Shown here: one piece after another, positions 2,204-64,000 of the stretch
How the letters are laid out: every line of letters starts with the position of its first letter
How positions within the stretch are numbered: the stretch's first letter is position 1
NCBI RefSeq assembly: GCF_024700885.2
Contig: NZ_CP117016.1
Direction: 5' to 3' (one strand)
Source: Escherichia coli
Lineage (GTDB): Bacteria; Pseudomonadota; Gammaproteobacteria; Enterobacterales; Enterobacteriaceae
Length of the DNA stretch: 64,000 nt
Notes under the pieces: model-generated
The model's database searches: none
What the model was told of the DNA's origin: nothing
The model's input: only the letters and a program-made list of their open reading frames with translations
Made by a program: the position numbers and the translations under genes

Positions 2204-3223
2204 TCAGAAGTCGGCTTTCAGGACCACTCGGTAGCGCGCTTTACCATCGCGTACATGCTGAATGGCGTCGTTAATTTTCGACATCGGGAACAATTCGGTA
2301 GTCGGCGCAACCTTGCTGCGGGCGGCAAAGCGCATCAGCTTACGCAACTCATAAGGCGTGCCGGTAGCAGAACCAGAGACGCTGCGGTCGCCCGCAATTA
2401 ACGTAAAGGCCGGAACAGACAGCGGCGTGAGAACCGCACCGACCGTATGGAAATTACCGCCGTACGTCAGCGCTTCAAAATAAGGCTGCCAGTCGAGGCT
2501 GACGTTGACGGTGTTGATAATGAGATCAAACTGCCCCGCCAGTGCTTTCAGTGCCTGCGGATCGCGGCTATTCACCACTTTATCGGCACCCATCGCCAGT
2601 ACTTCCTGCTCTTTCGCCGGATTCGAACTAAAGGCTGTCACCTCGCATCCCATTGCGTGCAGAAGTTTTATAGCGATATGCCCCAGCCCGCCAATACCAA
2701 TTACCCCAACGCGGCTGGTGGCAGTGATATGGTGCATTAACAGTGGTTTGAAGACCGTGATACCACCGCACAACAGCGGCCCGGCGGACTCGATATCAAT
2801 ATTTTCTGGCAGTGGAATCACCCATTGCCAGTCCGCACGCAACTTCTCGGCAAAGCCACCGCGATTCATAATCGTCGGCACCGCACCTTGCTCACAGTTG
2901 ATCTGATTACCGCTAATACAGGCATCGCAATGCCCGCAGCTACGCGCCGTCCAGCCAATCCCGACACGCTGACCGACCTGCAAACCTTTATCCTGCGCGG
3001 CGCTCCCGAGCGCCACCACGCGACCAATCACCTCATGCCCGGCAACCAGCGGATATTGTGAAAATCCCCATTCGTTATCGATCATCGACAGATCGGAATG
3101 GCAGATCCCGCAGTAATCCACCTGCACTTCAACATCTTGTGGCTTCAGTTCACCGGGATCGTACTCATAAACTTCCAGTTCGCCGCCTGCTTCTTTTGCG
3201 GCATAGCTTTTTATCATCGACAT
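2204..3223 (-). CDS. ahr: NADPH-dependent aldehyde reductase Ahr (Zn-dependent alcohol dehydrogenase family)
   Basis: Translation carries the zinc-ADH motifs ([22 protein letters not shown]); start chosen at MSMIKSY. Confidence 0.85.
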
Positions 3224-3418: not shown

Positions 3419-3503
3419 GCCGAAGTGGCGAAATCGGTAGACGCAGTTGATTCAAAATCAACCGTAGAAATACGTGCCGGTTCGAGTCCGGCCTTCGGCA
3501 CCA
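3419..3503 (+). tRNA. leuX: tRNA-Leu (anticodon CAA)
   Basis: 85-nt sequence GCCGAAGTGG...TTCGAGTCCGGCCTTCGGCACCA with a CAA anticodon loop and long variable arm; genomic position after ahr. Confidence 0.9.
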
Positions 3504-9878: not shown

Positions 9879-10406
9879 TAAACAGGAAACACGGGGAGGT
9901 TCACTTTGCTTTCTCCTGTAGTATTTTCTGTAGGTTCTGAACCGGTTCGAGCGGGGTTGTGAGGCTGATGGCAATCCCCGGGCTCTTCCTGCATGTTACA
10001 CTGGTACTGCAACAGGGGGCCTTCGCTCCTATGACATTACTCAGTATTTTCACTACTACACCCCATCTGCCATCCATAACAACCGATTCACCCCCTCGGG
10101 AGGCGTTGTTGCCCGTCACCCGGACAGGCATCGTTATGGACTTCTCTTGTTGCACGATCGATCAATTGTTATGCATGCTGACACCACTACCCCGGTGGGT
10201 ATGACCGATGCCTTTCTCACTCTCTTCCCGGTCATCGTCGGCCTTCCCCGTTATTGTGGCGTGTCGGCACCATCGACGGCATTTCGATGGCTGCTCAGTG
10301 TTCACTCACGTTACGGCCCGCATAACCCATTGACTTCCTGAAGAAGTCGTTTCAGGGAGAGATTCAGCCCTTTTGTTACCTCCTGGACCGCTTCCTGTCC
10401 TTCCAG

Positions 10407-10681
10407 TTGGAGCGAGAGTTAGTCGGGGCGGACTTTCACCGACGGAAAGATCGTGCATTTCAAGGCACACACAACAATATCTGCGAGCGTGCTATCCGTC
10501 CGGTCGTTATGGGACGAAAGGCCTGGTTGTTCGCTGGTTCACTGATGGCCGGGAACCGAGCGGCACAGATAATGAGCCTTCTGGAAACAGCAGTCTGGAG
10601 CCACATGCTTGGCTGACGGACGTCCTAACGCGTCTGCCCGGAGTGGCCGGAGGAGAGGTTGGCAGAGTTACTGCCTCTTGA
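10407..10681 (+). pseudogene. IS66-family transposase (TnpC) C-terminal fragment
   Basis: ERAIRPVVMGRKAWLFAGS motif in one frame, continuation in another. Confidence 0.55.
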
Positions 10682-12113: not shown

Positions 12114-12878
12114 TCAGATATATTTTAATTTTTCCGATAGTTCTTGACACGCATCAAGAACCAAAGTTGAATAATATTCAATTTTTTCTTTAGGTATCTG
12201 AATTTCCACGCCACTAATGCTGATAGCTGCAATTACTTCACGAGTCTGATTAAATACCGGAGCAGCAATACAATAAATTCCCGGTGAATCCTCTGCGTTA
12301 TCAAAAGCCCATCCACGTTCACGAATACGTGCAAATTCCTGTATTAGATCAGATTTACGAGTGATAGTTGTTTGCGTAAATCGTGGCAACGTTTCCTCAG
12401 GCAACAATGTGTCAATGACGTCTTGAGGTAACCACGCACATAAAGCCTTACCAACTCCAGAACTATGGAGTGGCAACTTCTTGCCTACCCACGTTCTGAT
12501 GCCAATTGGTTGTGTACTCTCGAGTTTCAAAATATAGATTGGAGCGACTTCATCGAGAATGCCCAGATGGCAGATAAGATCAGTACTGTCTCTCAGTTTT
12601 TCTAGAACCGGCCTCGCTACCTTACTGATGTCAAACTGCTCCAGAGATCGATTCCCCCATTCATACAATTTCAGCCCAAGAAAAAAACGCCCTCTTTCCT
12701 GACGTAACAGATGATGTTCGACAAGGGCATTCAGTAAAGATGATGTGCTGCTTTTTGGCAGATCCAGATCCTGCTGGATCTGGCTGAAGGTGGCGCCTGG
12801 AGAGCTAAAAAGGTAATTGCAGACTCTGACAGTTTTATCGAGTGCTGGTACCGATGTTCTGATGGTTTGATTATTCAT
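12114..12878 (-). CDS. IclR-family transcriptional regulator
   Basis: Family call from HTH-plus-ligand-domain organisation; start chosen at MNNQTIR (alternative upstream ATGs at 12920 and 12950). Confidence 0.7.
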   Translation of the reverse strand: MNNQTIRTSVPALDKTVRVCNYLFSSPGATFSQIQQDLDLPKSSTSSLLNALVEHHLLRQERGRFFLGLKLYEWGNRSLEQFDISKVARPVLEKLRDSTDLICHLGILDEVAPIYILKLESTQPIGIRTWVGKKLPLHSSGVGKALCAWLPQDVIDTLLPEETLPRFTQTTITRKSDLIQEFARIRERGWAFDNAEDSPGIYCIAAPVFNQTREVIAAISISGVEIQIPKEKIEYYSTLVLDACQELSEKLKYI

Positions 12879-32377: not shown

Positions 32378-33298
32378 TTATTCGTTTAAGGTTAAAAATT
32401 CATTAAATTGTTCAATACTCGGATAAGATGATTGCGTACCTTTCCCTGTGACGCTGAAAGCGGCAAAGAGAGCGGCTTTTTTCAAAGCGGCTTCAACATC
32501 ACCGCTTTGAACATAATAATGGGAAAAGCAACCAATAAATGCGTCACCAGCGCCACTAGTATCAACAGCATTTACTTTGAATGCAGGAACATGGACTTCC
32601 TGATCGCGGGTCATCCATAATGCGCCTTTTTCGCTCATGGTAACAATAATATTGTTCAGCCCTTTATCAACTAACGAACGTGCGGCCAAACGAATATGAT
32701 CATAAGTATCAACCGACATACCGGTTAATATTTCCAGTTCTGTTTCATTCGGGATAAAGAAATCACATTTGCAGGCATAAGACATATCTAACTCACGCAA
32801 TGCCGGAGCCGGATTTAATAACACTTCAATACCATTTATCTTACCAAACTCAATCGCGTGGTAAACTGTTTCCAGTTGAACTTCCAGTTGTAAAACGATC
32901 AATTTGCATTTTTTCAGATCTTCTGCAGCTCGATCGATATCTTCCGGGGAAAGAAATTTATTCGCTCCCTTAATTATTAATATACTATTGCTCGAGTTGG
33001 CATTAACAAAGATCGGTGCAACACCACTGCTGGTACAGGGGACCTTCTCAACATAAGTGGTATTAATTCCCCATGATTCAAGATTACGAATAGTATTATC
33101 CGCAAAAATATCATCACCTACTTTAGTCAGCATCAGGACTTTTGAATTCAATTTAGCCGCCGCCACCGCTTGATTAGCACCTTTCCCACCACATCCGATT
33201 TTGAAGGCAGGTGCTTCCAGAGTTTCTCCTTCTTTAGGCATCTGATTAGTGTAAGTAATGAGATCCACCATATTGGAACCAATAACTGCAATGTCCAT
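32378..33298 (-). CDS. deoK: Deoxyribokinase (ribokinase/PfkB family)
   Basis: PfkB signatures (GGKGANQA, DTSGAGDAF); start at MDIAVIG with SD agagg. Confidence 0.75.
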   Translation of the reverse strand: MDIAVIGSNMVDLITYTNQMPKEGETLEAPAFKIGCGGKGANQAVAAAKLNSKVLMLTKVGDDIFADNTIRNLESWGINTTYVEKVPCTSSGVAPIFVNANSSNSILIIKGANKFLSPEDIDRAAEDLKKCKLIVLQLEVQLETVYHAIEFGKINGIEVLLNPAPALRELDMSYACKCDFFIPNETELEILTGMSVDTYDHIRLAARSLVDKGLNNIIVTMSEKGALWMTRDQEVHVPAFKVNAVDTSGAGDAFIGCFSHYYVQSGDVEAALKKAALFAAFSVTGKGTQSSYPSIEQFNEFLTLNE

Positions 33299-56235: not shown

Positions 56236-57108
56236 ATGAATCCGTCTGATGCCATTGAGGCAATTGAAAAACCGCTCTCCTCCCTGCCTTACTCACTTTC
56301 CCGTCACATCCTGGAACATCTGCGCAAACTCACCAGTCACGAACCCGTGATTGGCATTATGGGTAAAAGCGGGGCCGGTAAATCCTCACTCTGTAATGCA
56401 CTGTTTCAGGGGGAGGTCACCCCGGTCAGTGATGTTCACGCCGGCACCCGGGAAGTGCGGCGCTTCCGTCTGAGTGGCCACGGTCACAGCATGATTATCA
56501 CTGACCTGCCCGGGGTGGGCGAGAGCCGGGACAGGGATGCAGAGTATGAAGCCCTGTACCGTGACATTCTGCCTGAACTTGACCTGGTACTGTGGCTGAT
56601 TAAAGCCGATGACCGTGCCCTGTCTGTGGATGAGTATTTCTGGCGACACATCCTGCACCGGGGACATCAGCAGGTGCTGTTTGTGGTGACGCAGGCCGAC
56701 AAAACGGAGCCCTGCCATGAATGGGATATGGCCGGCATTCAGCCTTCTCCCGCACAGGCACAGAACATTCGTGAGAAAACAGATGCGGTATTCCGGCTGT
56801 TCCGGCCCGTACATCCGGTTGTGGCCGTATCGGCCTGCACCGGCTGGGAACTGGATACGCTGGTCAGTGCGCTCATGACAGCGCTTCCCGACCATGCCGC
56901 CAGTCCCCTGATGACCCGCCTGCAGGACGAGCTGCGCACGGAATCTGTCCGGTCTCAGGCCCGTGAACAGTTTACCGGTGCGGTGGACCGGATATTTGAC
57001 ACGGCGGAGAGCGTCTGTATTGCCTCTGTTGCACGCACGGTTCTGCGTGCCGTCCGTGACTCGGTGGTCTCTGTTGCCCGCGCTGTATGGAACTGGATTT
57101 TCTTCTGA
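56236..57108 (+). CDS. yeeP: YeeP/YkfA-family GTPase (50S ribosome-binding GTPase fold), apparently intact
   Basis: G1 motif GIMGKSGAGKSS and G3 DLPG; start set at MNPSDAIEA. Confidence 0.7.
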   Translation: MNPSDAIEAIEKPLSSLPYSLSRHILEHLRKLTSHEPVIGIMGKSGAGKSSLCNALFQGEVTPVSDVHAGTREVRRFRLSGHGHSMIITDLPGVGESRDRDAEYEALYRDILPELDLVLWLIKADDRALSVDEYFWRHILHRGHQQVLFVVTQADKTEPCHEWDMAGIQPSPAQAQNIREKTDAVFRLFRPVHPVVAVSACTGWELDTLVSALMTALPDHAASPLMTRLQDELRTESVRSQAREQFTGAVDRIFDTAESVCIASVARTVLRAVRDSVVSVARAVWNWIFF

Positions 57109-57227
57109 ACACTCTGCCAGGGGAAATGCCTGATTACATTGCGTTAACCAACTGAAAACATGACACAAACACCTCATGCCCCTCCTGTTTCTCTTGCGTG
57201 ACTGCTCTGCTGTTAATAGAATAAAAC

Positions 57228-57263
57228 GATCGATAAAACAGGTATCGATCGTTACTATCGATC
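57228..57263. promoter_or_regulatory. agn43 phase-variation switch: three GATC Dam sites in the OxyR-binding region
   Basis: GATC at 57228, 57247 and 57260 within cgatcgataaaacaggtatcgatcgttactatcgatcg, upstream of flu. Confidence 0.75.
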
Positions 57264-57422
57264 GTTTATAGTGGTTAATGGTCTGCGAAAAGGCAGCTGA
57301 ATCTCTTCATCATGCAGAACGGAATTGCACACAACGGACTGATACTTCTCTGGCGGATGAGAGAGGGGAAGCATTTATGTCCGGGAAAAACCACTTTATC
57401 TGACCATGCTGTTTTGTACCTG

Positions 57423-57457
57423 CCGGTATCCACATTTGTGGGTACCGGCTTTTTTAT
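57423..57457 (+). terminator. Rho-independent terminator-like hairpin in the agn43 leader
   Basis: 11-bp stem ccggtatccac...gtgggtaccgg with one G-U pair, then CTTTTTTATT, 24 bp upstream of the flu ATG. Confidence 0.6.
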
Positions 57458-57480
57458 TCACCCTCTGTAAGGAAAAGCTG

Positions 57481-60327
57481 ATGAAACGACATCTGAACAC
57501 CAGCTACAGGCTGGTATGGAATCACATTACGGGCACCCTGGTGGTGGCTTCCGAACTGGCGCGCTCACGGGGAAAACGCACCGGTGTGGCGGTTGCGCTG
57601 TCTCTTGCTGCTGTCACGTCAGTCCCGGTACTGGCTGCTGACACGGTCGTACAGGCGGGAGAAACCGTGAGCGGCGGAACACTGACAAATCATGACAACC
57701 AGATTGTCTTCGGTACGGCCAACGGAATGACCATCAGTACCGGTCTGGAGTATGGGCCGGATAACGAGGCCAATACCGGCGGACAATGGATACAAAATGG
57801 CGGTATCGCCAACAACACTACTGTCACCGGTGGTGGTCTTCAGAGAGTGAATGCCGGAGGAAGCGTTTCAGACACGGTTATCAGTGCCGGAGGCGGACAG
57901 AGCCTTCAGGGGCAGGCAGTGAACACCACTCTGAACGGCGGTGAGCAGTGGGTACATGAAGGCGGGATTGCAACGGGTACCGTCATTAATGAGAAGGGCT
58001 GGCAGGCCGTCAAATCCGGCGCAATGGCAACCGACACGGTTGTGAATACCGGCGCGGAAGGGGGACCGGATGCAGAAAATGGTGATACCGGGCAGTTTGT
58101 TCGCGGAAATGCCGTACGTACCACTATCAATGAAAATGGTCGTCAGATTGTGGCTGCTGAAGGAACAGCAAATACCACTGTGGTTTATGCCGGCGGCGAC
58201 CAGACGGTACACGGGCATGCGCTGGATACCACACTGAATGGCGGTTACCAGTATGTGCACAACGGAGGCACAGCCTCTGACACGGTTGTAAACAGTGACG
58301 GCTGGCAGATTGTCAAGGAAGGTGGTCTGGCGGATTTCACCACCGTTAACCAGAAAGGCAAACTGCAGGTGAACGCCGGTGGTACAGCCACGAATGTCAC
58401 CCTGAAGCAGGGAGGCGCACTGGTCACCAGTACGGCGGCAACCGTCACCGGCAGCAACCGTCTGGGCAATTTCACTGTGGAAAACGGTAATGCTGACGGT
58501 GTTGTTCTGGAGTCCGGTGGTCGCCTGGATGTACTGGAGGGCCATTCAGCCTGGAAAACACTGGTGGATGACGGCGGAACCCTGGCAGTGTCTGCCGGTG
58601 GTAAGGCAACAGATGTCACCATGACATCCGGTAGTGCCCTGATTGCAGACAGTGGTGCCACTGTTGAGGGGACCAATGCCAGCGGTAAGTTCAGTATTGA
58701 TGGCACATCCGGTCAGGCCAGCGGACTGCTGCTGGAAAATGGCGGCAGCTTTACGGTTAATGCCGGAGGACTGGCCAGCAACACCACTGTCGGACATCGT
58801 GGAACACTGACGCTGGCTGCCGGGGGAAGTCTGAGTGGCAGAACACAGCTCAGTAAAGGTGCCAGCATGGTACTGAATGGCGATGTGGTCAGTACCGGCG
58901 ATATTGTTAACGCAGGGGAGATTCGCTTTGATAATCAGACGACACCGGATGCCGCGCTGAGCCGTGCTGTTGCAAAAGGCGACTCCCCGGTAACGTTCCA
59001 TAAACTGACCACCAGTAACCTCACCGGTCAGGGTGGCACCATCAATATGCGTGTTCGCCTTGATGGCAGCAATACCTCTGACCAGCTGGTGATTAATGGT
59101 GGTCAGGCAACCGGCAAAACCTGGCTTGCGTTTACAAATGTCGGAAACAGTAACCTCGGGGTGGCAACCTCCGGACAGGGTATCCGGGTTGTGGATGCAC
59201 AGAATGGCGCCACCACAGAAGAAGGTGCGTTTGCCCTGAGTCGCCCGCTTCAGGCCGGCGCCTTTAACTACACCCTGAACCGTGACAGCGATGAAGACTG
59301 GTACCTGCGCAGTGAAAATGCTTATCGTGCTGAAGTCCCCCTGTATACATCCATGCTGACACAGGCAATGGACTATGACCGGATTCTGGCAGGCTCCCGC
59401 AGCCATCAGACCGGTGTAAACGGTGAAAATAACAGCGTCCGTCTCAGCATTCAGGGCGGTCATCTCGGTCACGATAACAACGGCGGTATTGCCCGTGGAG
59501 CCACGCCGGAAAGCAGCGGCAGCTATGGCTTCGTCCGTCTGGAGGGTGACCTGCTCAGAACAGAGGTTGCCGGTATGTCTCTGACGACAGGGGTGCATGG
59601 TGCCGCAGGCCATTCTTCCGTTGATGTTAAGGATGATGACGGTTCCCGCGCCGGCACGGTCCGGGATGATGCCGGCAGCCTGGGCGGATACCTGAATCTG
59701 ACACACACGTCCTCCGGCCTGTGGGCTGACATTGTGGCACAGGGAACCCGCCACAGCATGAAAGCGTCATCGGACAATAACGACTTCCGCGCCCGCGGCT
59801 GGGGCTGGCTGGGCTCACTGGAAACCGGTCTGCCCTTCAGTATCACTGACAACCTGATGCTGGAGCCACAACTGCAGTATACCTGGCAGGGACTTTCCCT
59901 GGATGACGGCCAGGATAACGCCGGTTATGTGAAGTTCGGGCATGGCAGTGCACAACATGTGCGTGCCGGTTTCCGTCTGGGCAGCCACAACGATATGAGC
60001 TTTGGTGAAGGCACCTCATCCCGTGACACCCTGCGCGACAGTGCAAAACACCGTGTGCGTGAACTGCCGGTGAACTGGTGGGTACAGCCTTCTGTTATCC
60101 GCACCTTCAGTTCCCGGGGTGACATGAGCATGGGGACAGCCGCCGCCGGCAGTAACATGACGTTCTCACCGTCCCGGAATGGCACGTCACTGGACCTGCA
60201 GGCCGGACTGGAAGCCCGTGTCCGGGAAAATATCACCCTGGGCGTTCAGGCCGGTTATGCCCACAGTGTCAGCGGCAGCAGCGCTGAAGGTTATAACGGT
60301 CAGGCCACGCTGAATGTGACTTTCTGA
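57481..60327 (+). CDS. flu: Antigen 43 autotransporter adhesin (948 aa)
   Basis: Signal peptide, repetitive beta-helix passenger (TVxNxGG repeats), C-terminal beta-barrel ending ...TLNVTF. Confidence 0.85.
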
Positions 60328-60361
60328 TAATCAGGTCACTCTCCTTCAGGCCCCGGTCATC

Positions 60362-60556
60362 ATGACCGGGGCTTTTTACTTTCAGGGAGCAACAGATATG
60401 CCGGGTTGTACATCACGTTTATTGCCCGAAGGCCCTTTCTCACGCGAACAGGCTGTTGCCGTCAAAACAGCTTACCGCAATGTATTTACTGAAGATGACC
60501 AGGGAACATATTCCCGGCTGGTTATCCGTAATGCTGAAGGTCAGTTGCGCTGGTGA
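60362..60556 (+). CDS. Small hypothetical protein (64 aa)
   Basis: ORF only, downstream of flu. Confidence 0.3.
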
Positions 60557-60710
60557 TGCCGGAACACAGCTTAATACTCAGCTCGCCAGTTAAGGGCTTC
60601 TCAGACAATAAACGTCATTCATTTCATCTGTCAGGCCGCGTCTTCTCCGGGAGACGCAGCTTTTTCATTTATTACACCAGTAAATCGTAACCACCGATAA
60701 GGAGCAAATT

Positions 60711-61529
60711 ATGCGACTAGCCAGTCGTTTTGGTTATGCGAACCAGATACGCCGTGACCGTCCGCTGACACACGAAGAACTGATGCACTATGTTCCCAGT
60801 ATTTTCGGTGAAGACCGGCATACTTCCCGCAGTAAACGATATGCGTACATTCCCACCATCACCGTACTGGAAAGCCTGCAGCAGGAAGGTTTTCAGCCAT
60901 TCTTCGCCTGCCAGACCCGCGTGCGCGACCCGGGCCGCCGGGGATACACAAAACACATGCTGCGTCTGCGGCGGGCCGGAGAGATAAACGGAGAACATGT
61001 CCCTGAAATTATTCTGCTCAACTCTCATGACGGTACCTCCAGCTACCAGATGCTGCCGGGTTACTTCAGATTCGTCTGCCAGAATGGCTGCGTCTGCGGT
61101 CAGTCTCTGGGGGAAGTGCGTGTTCCACACCGGGGAAATGTGGTGGAGAAAGTTATCGAAGGGGCTTACGAAGTGGTGGGGGTTTTTGACCGGATTGAGG
61201 AAAAGCGTGATGCCATGCAGTCGCTGGTCCTGCCGCCACCGGCACGCCAGGCGCTGGCACAGGCGGCACTGACTTACCGTTATGGTGACGAACATCAGCC
61301 AGTCACCACCGCTGACATTCTGACGCCACGACGCCGGGAGGATTACGGTAAGGACCTGTGGAGTACTTATCAGACCATCCAGGAGAATATGCTGAAAGGC
61401 GGGATTTCCGGCCGCAGTGCAAAAGGAAAACGTATCCACACCCGTGCCATTCACAACATCGACACCGATATTAAGCTCAACCGCGCATTGTGGGTAATGG
61501 CAGAAACGCTGCTGGAGAGCCTGCGCTGA
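60711..61529 (+). CDS. DUF932-family protein (YafZ/YfjQ-like)
   Basis: 272 aa; strong SD aaggag; conserved CP4-type module position. Confidence 0.7.
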   Translation: MRLASRFGYANQIRRDRPLTHEELMHYVPSIFGEDRHTSRSKRYAYIPTITVLESLQQEGFQPFFACQTRVRDPGRRGYTKHMLRLRRAGEINGEHVPEIILLNSHDGTSSYQMLPGYFRFVCQNGCVCGQSLGEVRVPHRGNVVEKVIEGAYEVVGVFDRIEEKRDAMQSLVLPPPARQALAQAALTYRYGDEHQPVTTADILTPRRREDYGKDLWSTYQTIQENMLKGGISGRSAKGKRIHTRAIHNIDTDIKLNRALWVMAETLLESLR

Positions 61530-61870
61530 TGCAGCATGTCCCTGAAGGCGTGATTCAGGCACCAGAATCACCCGACGCCCCGGAGGCGCTGCCGGGGTGT
61601 CGTTCCATTTCTGATGATGACCTGTGCGCCTGGTGTACCCGTCTGCTTTACCGTCCCGGAGAAATCAGTCTGTGCAGACTGAGTATACAGGCAATGGCAT
61701 CTGGCCATCCGTCTGTGACCGGAACGGTTACGCGTACGGCTGTCCGGAATTTCAGCCGAATATCATTCATCCCTGATATTACCGGGTCATCACGGTCAGT
61801 GATGAACGTGATGTTGCCAGGTCCCGACCTTTACTCCCTCTCATTTATTCACATTACAAGGATTTCATAC

Positions 61871-62344
61871 ATGAAAACATTGTCTCAGAACACCACCTCT
61901 TCGGCCTGTGCACCGGAGACTGACCTGCAACAACTGGTTGCCACCCTCGTCCCTGATGAACAGCGCATCAGCTTCTGGCCGCAGCACTTTGGCCTCATTC
62001 CACAGTGGGTGACCCTGGAGCCCCGTGTCTTCGGCTGGATGGACCGTCTGTGCGAAGACTACTGCGGTGGTATCTGGAATCTGTACACCCTGAACAACGG
62101 CGGGGCATTTATGGCACCCGAACCGGATGACGATGATGACGAAACATGGGTACTGTTCAATGCCATGAACGGTAACCGCGCTGAAATGAGTCCGGAAGCT
62201 GCCGGCATTGCTGCCTGTCTGATGACGTACAGTCATCATGCCTGTCGTACGGAGTGTTATGCCATGACGGTCCATTATTACCGGCTGCGGGATTACGCCC
62301 TGCAGCATCCGGAATGCAGCGCCATTATGCGCATCATCGACTGA
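61871..62344 (+). CDS. Antirestriction protein (KlcA/ArdB-like, YfjX/YafX family)
   Basis: ...AAGIAACLMTYSHHACR...YYRLRDYALQHPECSAIMRIID; start at MKTLSQNT (the frame is open upstream to 61490). Confidence 0.7.
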   Translation: MKTLSQNTTSSACAPETDLQQLVATLVPDEQRISFWPQHFGLIPQWVTLEPRVFGWMDRLCEDYCGGIWNLYTLNNGGAFMAPEPDDDDDETWVLFNAMNGNRAEMSPEAAGIAACLMTYSHHACRTECYAMTVHYYRLRDYALQHPECSAIMRIID

Positions 62345-62359
62345 ATGGAGAGAAGTACA

Positions 62360-62836
62360 ATGCAACAGCTTTCCTTTCTGCCCGGAGAGATGACGCCCGG
62401 CGAGCGCAGCCTCATTCAACGGGCCCTGAAAACCCTGGACCGCCATCTTCATGAACCCGGCGTGGCCTTCACCTCCACCCGTGCGGCACGAGAATGGCTG
62501 ATTCTGAACATGGCGGGACTGGAGCGTGAAGAGTTCCGGGTGCTGTATCTGAACAACCAGAATCAGCTGATTGCCGGTGAAACCCTCTTCACCGGCACCA
62601 TCAACCGCACGGAAGTCCATCCCCGTGAAGTGATTAAACGCGCCCTGTATCACAATGCCGCTGCTGTGGTGCTGGCACACAATCACCCGTCCGGTGAAGT
62701 CACACCCAGCAAGGCAGACCGCCTTATCACGGAACGTCTGGTACAGGCACTGGGCCTGGTGGATATCCGGGTGCCGGACCATCTGATAGTCGGTGGCAGC
62801 CAGGTTTTCTCCTTTGCCGAATATGGTCTGCTTTAA
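62360..62836 (+). CDS. RadC-like JAB-domain protein (YeeS/YkfG family)
   Basis: JAMM motif HNHPSGEVTPSKAD; start at MQQLSFLPGE with SD ggagagaag. Confidence 0.8.
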   Translation: MQQLSFLPGEMTPGERSLIQRALKTLDRHLHEPGVAFTSTRAAREWLILNMAGLEREEFRVLYLNNQNQLIAGETLFTGTINRTEVHPREVIKRALYHNAAAVVLAHNHPSGEVTPSKADRLITERLVQALGLVDIRVPDHLIVGGSQVFSFAEYGLL

Positions 62837-62898
62837 CCCGTCACAACCACATCACACCTGTTTTCACTTTTATCTTCTGTCTTCAGAGGTATCCCACT

Positions 62899-63120
62899 AT
62901 GAAAATCATCACCCGTGGCGAAGCCATGCGTATTCACCGTCAGCATCCGGCATCCCGTCTTTTTCCGTTCTGTACCGGCAAATACCGCTGGCACGGCAGT
63001 GCTGAAGCGTATACCGGTCGTGAAGTGCAGGATATTCCCGGTGTGCTGGCCGTGTTTGCAGAACGCCGTAAGGACAGTTTTGGTCCGTATGTCCGGCTGA
63101 TGAGCGTCACCCTGAACTGA
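62899..63120 (+). CDS. DUF987-family protein (YeeT-like)
   Basis: 73 aa; conserved position between the RadC-like gene and cbeA. Confidence 0.65.
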   Translation: MKIITRGEAMRIHRQHPASRLFPFCTGKYRWHGSAEAYTGREVQDIPGVLAVFAERRKDSFGPYVRLMSVTLN

Positions 63121-63282
63121 TGTTCCGTCACCCGGAAAACGAGTACGACTGGCTGAGCTCAGACGCCGCTGTGGATGAGGCCCTGCTCATCAACGAATAC
63201 ACCTTCACCGAAGCCGGTCTGTGCACCGGCTGACCCGTCATCGTTAAACTATCATTCACCGATTTTCTGTGAGGATTTTATC

Positions 63283-63651
63283 GTGTCAGACACACTTTCC
63301 GGGACAACGCATCCCGATGACAATGACGACCATCCCTGGTGGGGACTACCCTGCACAGTGACGCCCTGTTTCGGCGCCCGTCTGGTGCAGGAGGGTAACC
63401 GGTTGCATTACCTTGCCGACCGTGCCGGTATCAGAGGCCGGTTCAGAGATGCGGATGCGTACCCTCTGGACCAGGCCTTTCCGCTGCTGATGAAACAACT
63501 GAAATTAATGCTCACCAGTGGTGAACTGAATCCCCGCCATCAGCATACCGTGACACTGTATGCGAAGGGGCTGACCTGTGAAGCCGACACCCTCGGCTCC
63601 TGTGGTTACGTTTATCTGGCTGTTTATCCGACACCTGAAACGAAAAAGTAA
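63283..63651 (+). CDS. cbeA: CbeA/YeeU-family type IV antitoxin
   Basis: GTG start with SD gaggat; ...[33 protein letters not shown]...[31 protein letters not shown]. Confidence 0.8.
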
Positions 63652-63740
63652 ACCACCAGAATAACCTTCTGCTCCGGCCTGGTGTTTTCACCACGCCACT
63701 GTCCCATTTTTTATCTCTGCATATCAGGAAAATCTTCAGT

Positions 63741-64000
63741 ATGAAAACATTACCCGACACGCATGTACGGGAGGTATCGTGCTGCCCGTCTCCCGTCACC
63801 ATCTGGCAGACACTGCTCACCCGGTTACTGGACCAGCATTACAGCCTTACGCTGAATGACACACCGTTCGTGGATGAACGCGTGATTGAGCAGCATATTG
63901 AGGCAGGCATTTCACTGTGTGATGCAGTGAACTTTCTCGTGGAAAAATACGCACTGGTACGAACTGACCAGCCGGGATTCAGCGCAGGAGCCTCGTCGCA
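63741..64000 (+). CDS. cbtA: CbtA/YeeV-family toxin, 5' portion (runs off window end)
   Basis: [11 protein letters not shown]...[43 protein letters not shown]. Confidence 0.8.

Follow-up and report, generated by a model that had tools for sequence, protein, structure and literature searches.

The DNA analysed here is a stretch of 64,000 nucleotides from Escherichia coli (contig NZ_CP117016.1), referred to as the window. A tRNA-Leu(CAA) gene, leuX (3419–3503), lies near its start, which identifies the stretch as the leuX genomic island of a strain resembling EAEC 042 and places the agn43 locus on that island. Over 24 kb, MLI114 DNA is 100% identical to the window, and the DNA of EAEC 042 is 99.4% identical; in the agn43 region, EAEC 042 and the window share 99.7% DNA identity over 3.3 kb. 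The CP4-44 site next to cobUST, which is the site of flu in K-12, was suggested as an alternative location by DETEC-P80 (100% over 421 nt), and was ruled out because the window corresponds to the leuX island of an EAEC-042-like strain. The island also contains a match to group II intron domains D1–D4, located on the minus strand at 10306–10445 (Rfam RF02003, 66.3 bits; cut-off 49).

The conserved module around agn43 is composed of genes for a GTPase, agn43 itself, DUF905, DUF932, an antirestriction protein, YeeS, YeeT, YeeU and CbtA. The gene that precedes agn43 (56236–57108, plus strand) belongs to a YeeP-like GTPase family, as indicated by the RefSeq annotation of 100%-identical strains and by weak matches to GTPase families, and its stop codon lies 120 nt upstream of the first GATC site described below. 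The agn43 leader region, which occupies the interval between this gene and the agn43 coding sequence, was found in 4,019 of 5,426 complete E. coli genomes.

The agn43 allele (57481–60327, plus strand) encodes an autotransporter of the Ag43/Cah family, 948 residues in length, and contains no GATC. The protein scores 1,991 bits against the NCBIfam model NF033177 (Ag43/Cah adhesin, cut-off 1,200), with positions 1–948 of 948 covered; proteins of this family have an extended signal peptide, a β-helical passenger domain and a C-terminal barrel. Its alignment with the 1,039-residue Flu of K-12 runs through both termini with 74% identity, and the approximately 91 residues missing relative to K-12 Flu are all in the passenger domain, between residues ~420 and 505. 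Matches to α-domain structures in the PDB comprise 7KO9 (the best), 7KOH and 4KH3, of which 7KO9 is the α-domain (α43) of Ag43 from UTI89, class C4 (PMC8993888). The original prediction had singled out the length of 948 residues as short compared with the 1,039 of K-12; the protein is indeed shorter, and its length is no oddity. Of 97 distinct full-length agn43 coding sequences, 45 encode 948 residues, 4 encode 949 and 47 encode 1,039 or 1,040, and the short allele is therefore an ordinary one, 948 residues being the commonest class as well as the length of the NF033177 model. Its RefSeq accession, WP_000820595.1, is that of the protein in strains 100% identical to the window and in EAEC 042, whose allele with a smaller passenger domain was shown to undergo processing and to cause autoaggregation and biofilm formation (Chaudhuri et al. 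2010). Judging from gene order and from the remark on the smaller passenger domain in that study, the 948-residue allele of EAEC 042 is probably Ec042-4803.

Upstream of the coding sequence lie three GATC sites, the positions of which (57228, 57247 and 57260) had been given exactly in the original prediction. GATC-I (57228–57231) is located at the predicted transcription start, where the homologous G in K-12 is the annotated start of isrC; GATC-II (57247–57250) lies at +19 relative to GATC-I, and GATC-III (57260–57263) at +13 relative to GATC-II. K-12 flu and all 10 of the intact E. coli alleles retrieved show the same 19 + 13 nt spacing, which is also kept in 82 of 89 distinct metagenomic agn43 leaders, which were recovered from 120 metagenome contigs; among these 89 leaders, one site is missing in five and none is left in two. 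Leaders with one lost GATC, together with those disrupted by insertion sequences, are candidate cases of a phase state that is locked or altered. In two of the complete-genome leaders, L006 (3501–3637, IS1) and L007 (3501–3550, IS66), the promoter and leader are replaced up to or past the terminator.

The window holds four clusters of three GATC sites within 40 bp, the agn43 cluster included, so clustering alone is not special. The other three are found at 3080–3107, 12761–12780 and 32897–32935. The cluster at 32897, which lies inside the rbsK coding sequence by coordinate conversion, has AAAACGATCAAT in common with the context of GATC-I in K-12, a resemblance that is probably due to chance.

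A simple consensus promoter scan found no agn43 promoter, since the −35 element matches the consensus at only 3 of 6 positions, and the promoter was instead assigned from conservation. Alleles were compared by ungapped alignments anchored on GATC-I (MAFFT misplaced the GATC box relative to K-12). The putative −35 hexamer, TTGCGT (57194–57199, plus strand), was read from the sequence and its conservation, and the putative −10 hexamer, TAGAAT (57217–57222, plus strand), sits 5 nt before the base that corresponds to the annotated isrC start in K-12. In these alignments three blocks are nearly invariant: CTCTTG at the −35 element, which is invariant in 81 allele sequences, AATAGAATAAAACGATC, which spans the −10 element and GATC-I, and ATCGATCG, which spans GATC-II and GATC-III. 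The variable parts are the 17-nt promoter spacer, the interval from GATC-I to GATC-II and the 5 nt between GATC-II and GATC-III. The spacer (57200–57216) differs strongly among alleles that are otherwise 95–99% identical. Such a pattern of blocks is the one expected of a promoter combined with a protein-binding and methylation box and is consistent with that assignment; it is homology to K-12 that places the GATC box at, or just downstream of, the start of a σ70 promoter.

The predicted OxyR-binding region (57226–57270) overlaps all three GATC sites. Against the consensus ATAGnTnnnAnCTAT-N7-ATAGnTnnnAnCTAT the region scores 13 of 20. Of ~64,000 positions in the window, 11 fall into this highest-scoring class, and because three registers tie at this value the site cannot be placed by score. 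The half-site ATCGTTACTATCGAT (57248–57262), reaching from GATC-II to GATC-III, matches at 8 of 10 positions, is the best conserved and is kept in K-12. The upstream half-site, between GATC-I and GATC-II, matches in the register of K-12 at approximately 2 of 10 positions by our own count, the same register giving a total of 14 of 20 in K-12. Here the arms around GATC-I and GATC-II form a perfect 11-bp inverted repeat (57225–57253), which is due to the 14-nt GATC-I/GATC-II interval of the window.

The Dam/OxyR mechanism of agn43 phase variation is known in K-12 (PMC3764049, PMC13076061), and phase variation has been suggested for the allele group to which the window belongs (PMC2808357). By analogy with K-12, OxyR binding and phase variation may be expected for the leader type of the window as well. 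The K-12 spacing, the position relative to the −10 element and the isrC start, and the Ag43/Cah gene downstream all point to the triplet being the agn43 Dam/OxyR switch, as had been proposed.

Between the switch and the start codon, the leader ends in a stem-loop, GCCGGUAUCCAC-AUUU-GUGGGUACCGGC (57422–57449, plus strand), with a stem of 12 pairs, of which 8 are G–C and one is G·U, and a 4-nt loop (AUUU). The U-tract TTTTTTATT (57450–57458, plus strand) follows directly after the stem, with T6 at 57450–57455; a G+C-rich stem, a short loop and an immediate U-tract are the features of an intrinsic terminator. The predicted free energy of the hairpin is −23.5 kcal/mol, compared with −9 on average for shuffled sequences (z = −6.71; none of 200 as stable), and three terminator-like sites were found where 0.3 are expected in shuffles. 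The end of T6 is separated by 25 nt from the agn43 ATG (57481), and a Shine–Dalgarno sequence, AAGGA (57469–57473, plus strand), identical in K-12, is located 7 nt before the ATG. A hairpin with a U-tract had been predicted at 57423–57457, which is right to within 1 nt.

The same region corresponds to a known RNA family. The Rfam model RF00124 (IS102 RNA) matches 57226–57462 on the plus strand with 74.6 bits (gathering threshold 46, E = 1.2e-11) over the full model, positions 1–206 of 206. In K-12, the isrC annotation (2071317–2071511) extends from the G of GATC-I to the last U of the U-tract, directly upstream of flu, and IsrC is therefore the agn43 leader transcript terminated at the hairpin. 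The corresponding leader RNA of the window, of the IsrC/IS102 type, would be approximately 228 nt long (57228–57455, plus strand), as indicated by the RF00124 match and the K-12 isrC annotation. The near-identity of the K-12 hairpin suggests that termination would also occur at the hairpin of the window in vivo.

The Wallecha 2014 study reportedly described a Rho-independent terminator that lies 28 bp ahead of the agn43 start codon and works in vitro; by our own measurement the T-run of K-12 lies approximately 27–28 nt before the flu ATG, in agreement with that distance. Termination is said there to increase towards stationary phase, antitermination is said to be of unidentified mechanism, and translation from an upstream in-frame start codon reportedly raises agn43 expression. 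A passage in PMC5389530, citing Wallecha 2014, presents termination and antitermination in the agn43/flu leader as controlling flu, and an entry in PMC5811629 reads ‘IsrC sRNA (flu gene attenuation)’. With the hairpin forming the 3′ end of the RF00124 RNA, these statements bear out the proposal of premature-termination control in the leader.

Two types of leader occur among the 5,426 complete genomes: that of the window, at a coverage of at least 80%, in 3,432, and that of K-12 in 1,889. Both have in common the promoter and GATC box, the last ~100 nt (terminator, U-tract and Shine–Dalgarno sequence) and the signal peptide, and the central ~150 nt of the leader cannot be aligned between them. 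The stem of the terminator is the same in both types, and across alleles its loop is AUUU, GUUU, UUUU or AUCU; a single variable pair in the stem is U·G, U–A or C–G, and is never broken. This pattern of conservation argues for a function of the leader RNA in the terminator rather than in a trans-acting seed. Any general antitermination must therefore act through the parts in common (promoter, GATC box, terminator and Shine–Dalgarno sequence) or through translation.

Taken with high confidence, the region is the regulatory region of an agn43 allele (flu/cah family) on the leuX island, in which a Dam/OxyR switch is combined with a leader terminator. This reading is built on the sequence anatomy, homology, conservation, Rfam and NCBIfam membership and thermodynamics obtained here; OxyR binding, phase variation and termination and antitermination in vivo are taken over from work on K-12. 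Transcription from the σ70 promoter (−35 at 57194, −10 at 57217) would start at or next to GATC-I (57228), with the GATC sites at approximately +1, +20 and +33, within the region bound by OxyR in K-12. OxyR on unmethylated GATC sites would block transcription and shield the sites from Dam, giving the OFF state, whereas methylation by Dam first after replication would prevent OxyR binding, giving the ON state; both states would be heritable. Transcripts would then pass through a leader of 253 nt, in which the terminator (57422–57458) would stop a fraction of them, freeing the IsrC/IS102-type RNA of ~228 nt, and read-through transcripts only would carry the Shine–Dalgarno sequence and the open reading frame of the 948-residue Ag43.

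How much transcription passes the hairpin may be set by translation. A ribosome on an upstream open reading frame, starting from ATG 57312 or 57406, would trail RNA polymerase over 57422–57449 and block the hairpin, so that termination would report on translation of the leader. This possibility, which we hold tentatively and at less than even chances, would refine the switch-and-terminator explanation rather than replace it, and translation across the hairpin is the leading candidate for what sets read-through. None of the three reading frames has a stop codon within the hairpin. A 52-codon upstream open reading frame of speculative function (57312–57470, plus strand) crosses the terminator, and its TAA (57468–57470) overlaps the Shine–Dalgarno sequence, an arrangement that would suit translational coupling; an alternative upstream ATG in frame with agn43 (57406–57480, plus strand), also speculative, would add a 25-codon extension through the terminator. 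Over the hairpin, the 52-codon frame (LYLPVSTFVGTGFFIHP) coincides with the frame used by the in-frame extension of K-12 Flu, in which an ATG at −156 gives an open reading frame of 1,091 residues. Because of a 2-nt deletion relative to K-12, the upstream frame of the window is unfused from Ag43 and stops inside the Shine–Dalgarno sequence. The cah leader of O157:H7 has yet another arrangement, in which an upstream ATG is again in frame.

An open reading frame that starts with ATG and crosses the terminator is present in 89 of 89 distinct leaders, and it either runs into agn43 as a fusion or stops at −17, −13 or −2. Against translation-set read-through, such a frame is also present in 43–86% of dinucleotide shuffles of the leader, which makes its occurrence not significant, and its presence was rejected as comparative evidence, being at the level of chance. 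Start position, frame and peptide show no conservation among the alleles compared, and neither ATG 57312 nor ATG 57406 is preceded by a Shine–Dalgarno sequence. With the comparative data not beyond chance, the idea rests on experiments in K-12.

The leader departs from a classical attenuator of the trp/his type, which has a conserved leader peptide with regulatory codons and mutually exclusive antiterminator and terminator structures: its upstream peptide is not conserved and, in folds of the nascent RNA, the two leader types were not found to have an antiterminator in common. In these folds of the window’s leader, the 5′ arm of the terminator (57422–57433) pairs with 57271–57282 (GUGGUUAAUGGU, just after GATC-III) with a probability of approximately 0.9. 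The same pairing of the 5′ arm is predicted in the O157 cah leader, and different partners are predicted in leaders of the K-12 type. The terminator is the more stable structure, by 17–20 kcal/mol, and the arm, invariant and fixed by the search pattern, leaves no covariation to test. The predicted pairing is a weak lead to an antiterminator specific to the leader type of the window. As a minor possibility, read-through in this commoner leader type could be governed by the unfused 52-codon frame, by the pairing with 57271–57282, or by both.

Alternatively, the hairpin may serve mainly as an insulator, stopping transcription that enters from the GTPase gene and other island genes, so that agn43 would respond to its own switch and the OFF state would be tight. 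The arrangement of genes would suit such a role: the GTPase gene is co-oriented with agn43, no terminator-like site is found in the 120 nt that separate its end from GATC-I, and the terminator, positioned after the switch and just before the Shine–Dalgarno sequence, is the last stopping point for upstream transcripts. However, the annotated RNA of K-12 starts at the agn43 promoter, and it is the termination of transcripts from that promoter that the literature describes. Insulation as the main role is unlikely, and in any case it would add to attenuation rather than exclude it.

It is highly improbable that the ~228-nt RNA is primarily a trans-acting small RNA (IsrC) with targets of its own, the control of agn43 being secondary. 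Rfam lists the family as a small RNA, K-12 carries an ncRNA annotation for isrC, and cyoD has been speculated to be a target from an IntaRNA prediction alone (PMC13168525). Against this, the middle 150 nt that cannot be aligned between leader types speak against a conserved seed, what is conserved is only the GATC box, the terminator and the Shine–Dalgarno sequence, and the function of the RNA is called unknown or uncharacterized in the literature. The last alternative, that the GATC cluster is a chance occurrence or a purely structural palindrome and that there is no Dam/OxyR switching in alleles of the window’s type, can draw on the three other triple clusters and on a GATC-I/GATC-II half-site unlike that of K-12, but has next to no probability given a spacing that is invariant across divergent leader types, invariant flanks and the position of these sites as the only GATCs in 8.5 kb.

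The surroundings of the switch, read above as a Dam/OxyR switch followed by a leader terminator, are depleted of GATC. Between 55489 and 64000 (8.5 kb) no GATC occurs apart from the three switch sites; the stretch 57264–64000 contains none where 22.1 are expected from a maximal-order Markov model, and of the 16 palindromic 4-mers GATC is the only one so depleted. In a strain 100% identical to the window (L135), the GATC-free stretch continues to the end of the DUF957 gene (L135:37721), and the next GATC occurs 7,559 nt after GATC-III. The maxima given for a 1.6-Mb segment of K-12 where PMC4659465 cites Hénaut 1996 are shorter, at 2.3–4.1 kb. GATC is absent from 84 of the 97 distinct agn43 coding sequences, against ~7.8 expected, and when synonymous codons were shuffled in the genes of the window, K-12 and O157, 6.3–8.6 GATC sites were expected and none of 500 shuffles reached zero, so that the avoidance acts at synonymous positions.

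A homologous module in CP4-57 that lacks agn43 is also depleted (2 GATC sites against 9.2 expected), and GATC avoidance is for this reason probably a property of the island module, which is the simplest reading. K-12 yeeR, which is inserted downstream of flu, is undepleted, with 12 sites against 7.7 expected. Mobile elements are described, without reference to particular loci, as having regions free of GATC (PMC4659465, PMC6602927), and no mention of the agn43 case was found in the literature searched. That the lack of GATC in the agn43 coding sequence and the 7.5 kb downstream is part of the design of the switch, beyond avoidance by a mobile element, appears doubtful, and we consider it unlikely. 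If it were so, the isolation would keep processive Dam, SeqA and MutH from reaching the promoter sites via neighbouring GATCs, and would leave the choice between ON and OFF to local competition between OxyR and Dam alone. The GATC-free neighbourhood is the sole item at this locus that might repay further work.

The agn43 switch and its leader terminator are already known, and the finding adds nothing new to biology. The Dam/OxyR switch is a textbook example of epigenetic phase variation; the terminator, published by Wallecha et al. in 2014, is curated in Rfam and in the annotation of K-12, and the short allele is common and has been functionally tested in EAEC 042. A reading made from the sequence alone nevertheless located and interpreted the GATC switch, the terminator and the open reading frame to within 1 nt.

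Among the closest known systems is the flu/agn43 switch of K-12 (Haagmans & van der Woude 2000, Waldron 2002, Wallecha 2002). It has the same three GATC sites with 19 + 13 nt spacing, in the same position relative to the start of the transcript, the same −10 and GATC-I context (AATAGAATAAAACGATC) and the same conserved ATCGATCGTTnnTATCGATCG core. It differs in the 14 nt from GATC-I to GATC-II, which are GATAAAACAGGTAT in the window and AATATCTATTTTAT in K-12, and in the promoter spacer; judged from the aligned sequence, K-12 is without the 11-bp inverted repeat of the window. The IsrC RNA of K-12 shares the U-tract, the Shine–Dalgarno sequence and the stem, with one base of the loop different (A in the window, G in K-12), whereas its length is 195 nt compared with the ~228 nt expected for the RNA of the window. 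The distance from the U-tract to the ATG is 25 nt in the window and 27 nt in K-12, owing to the 2-nt deletion beside the Shine–Dalgarno sequence of the window (~57466).

The Dam/Lrp switch of pap likewise produces heritable ON and OFF states, with Dam and a DNA-binding protein competing for GATC sites in the promoter. In pap, however, two GATC sites lie approximately 100 bp apart and Lrp with PapI moves between them, unlike agn43, in which three close GATC sites lie inside one repressor site. The 948-residue allele of EAEC 042 has the same protein accession as that of the window, with no noteworthy difference between the two.
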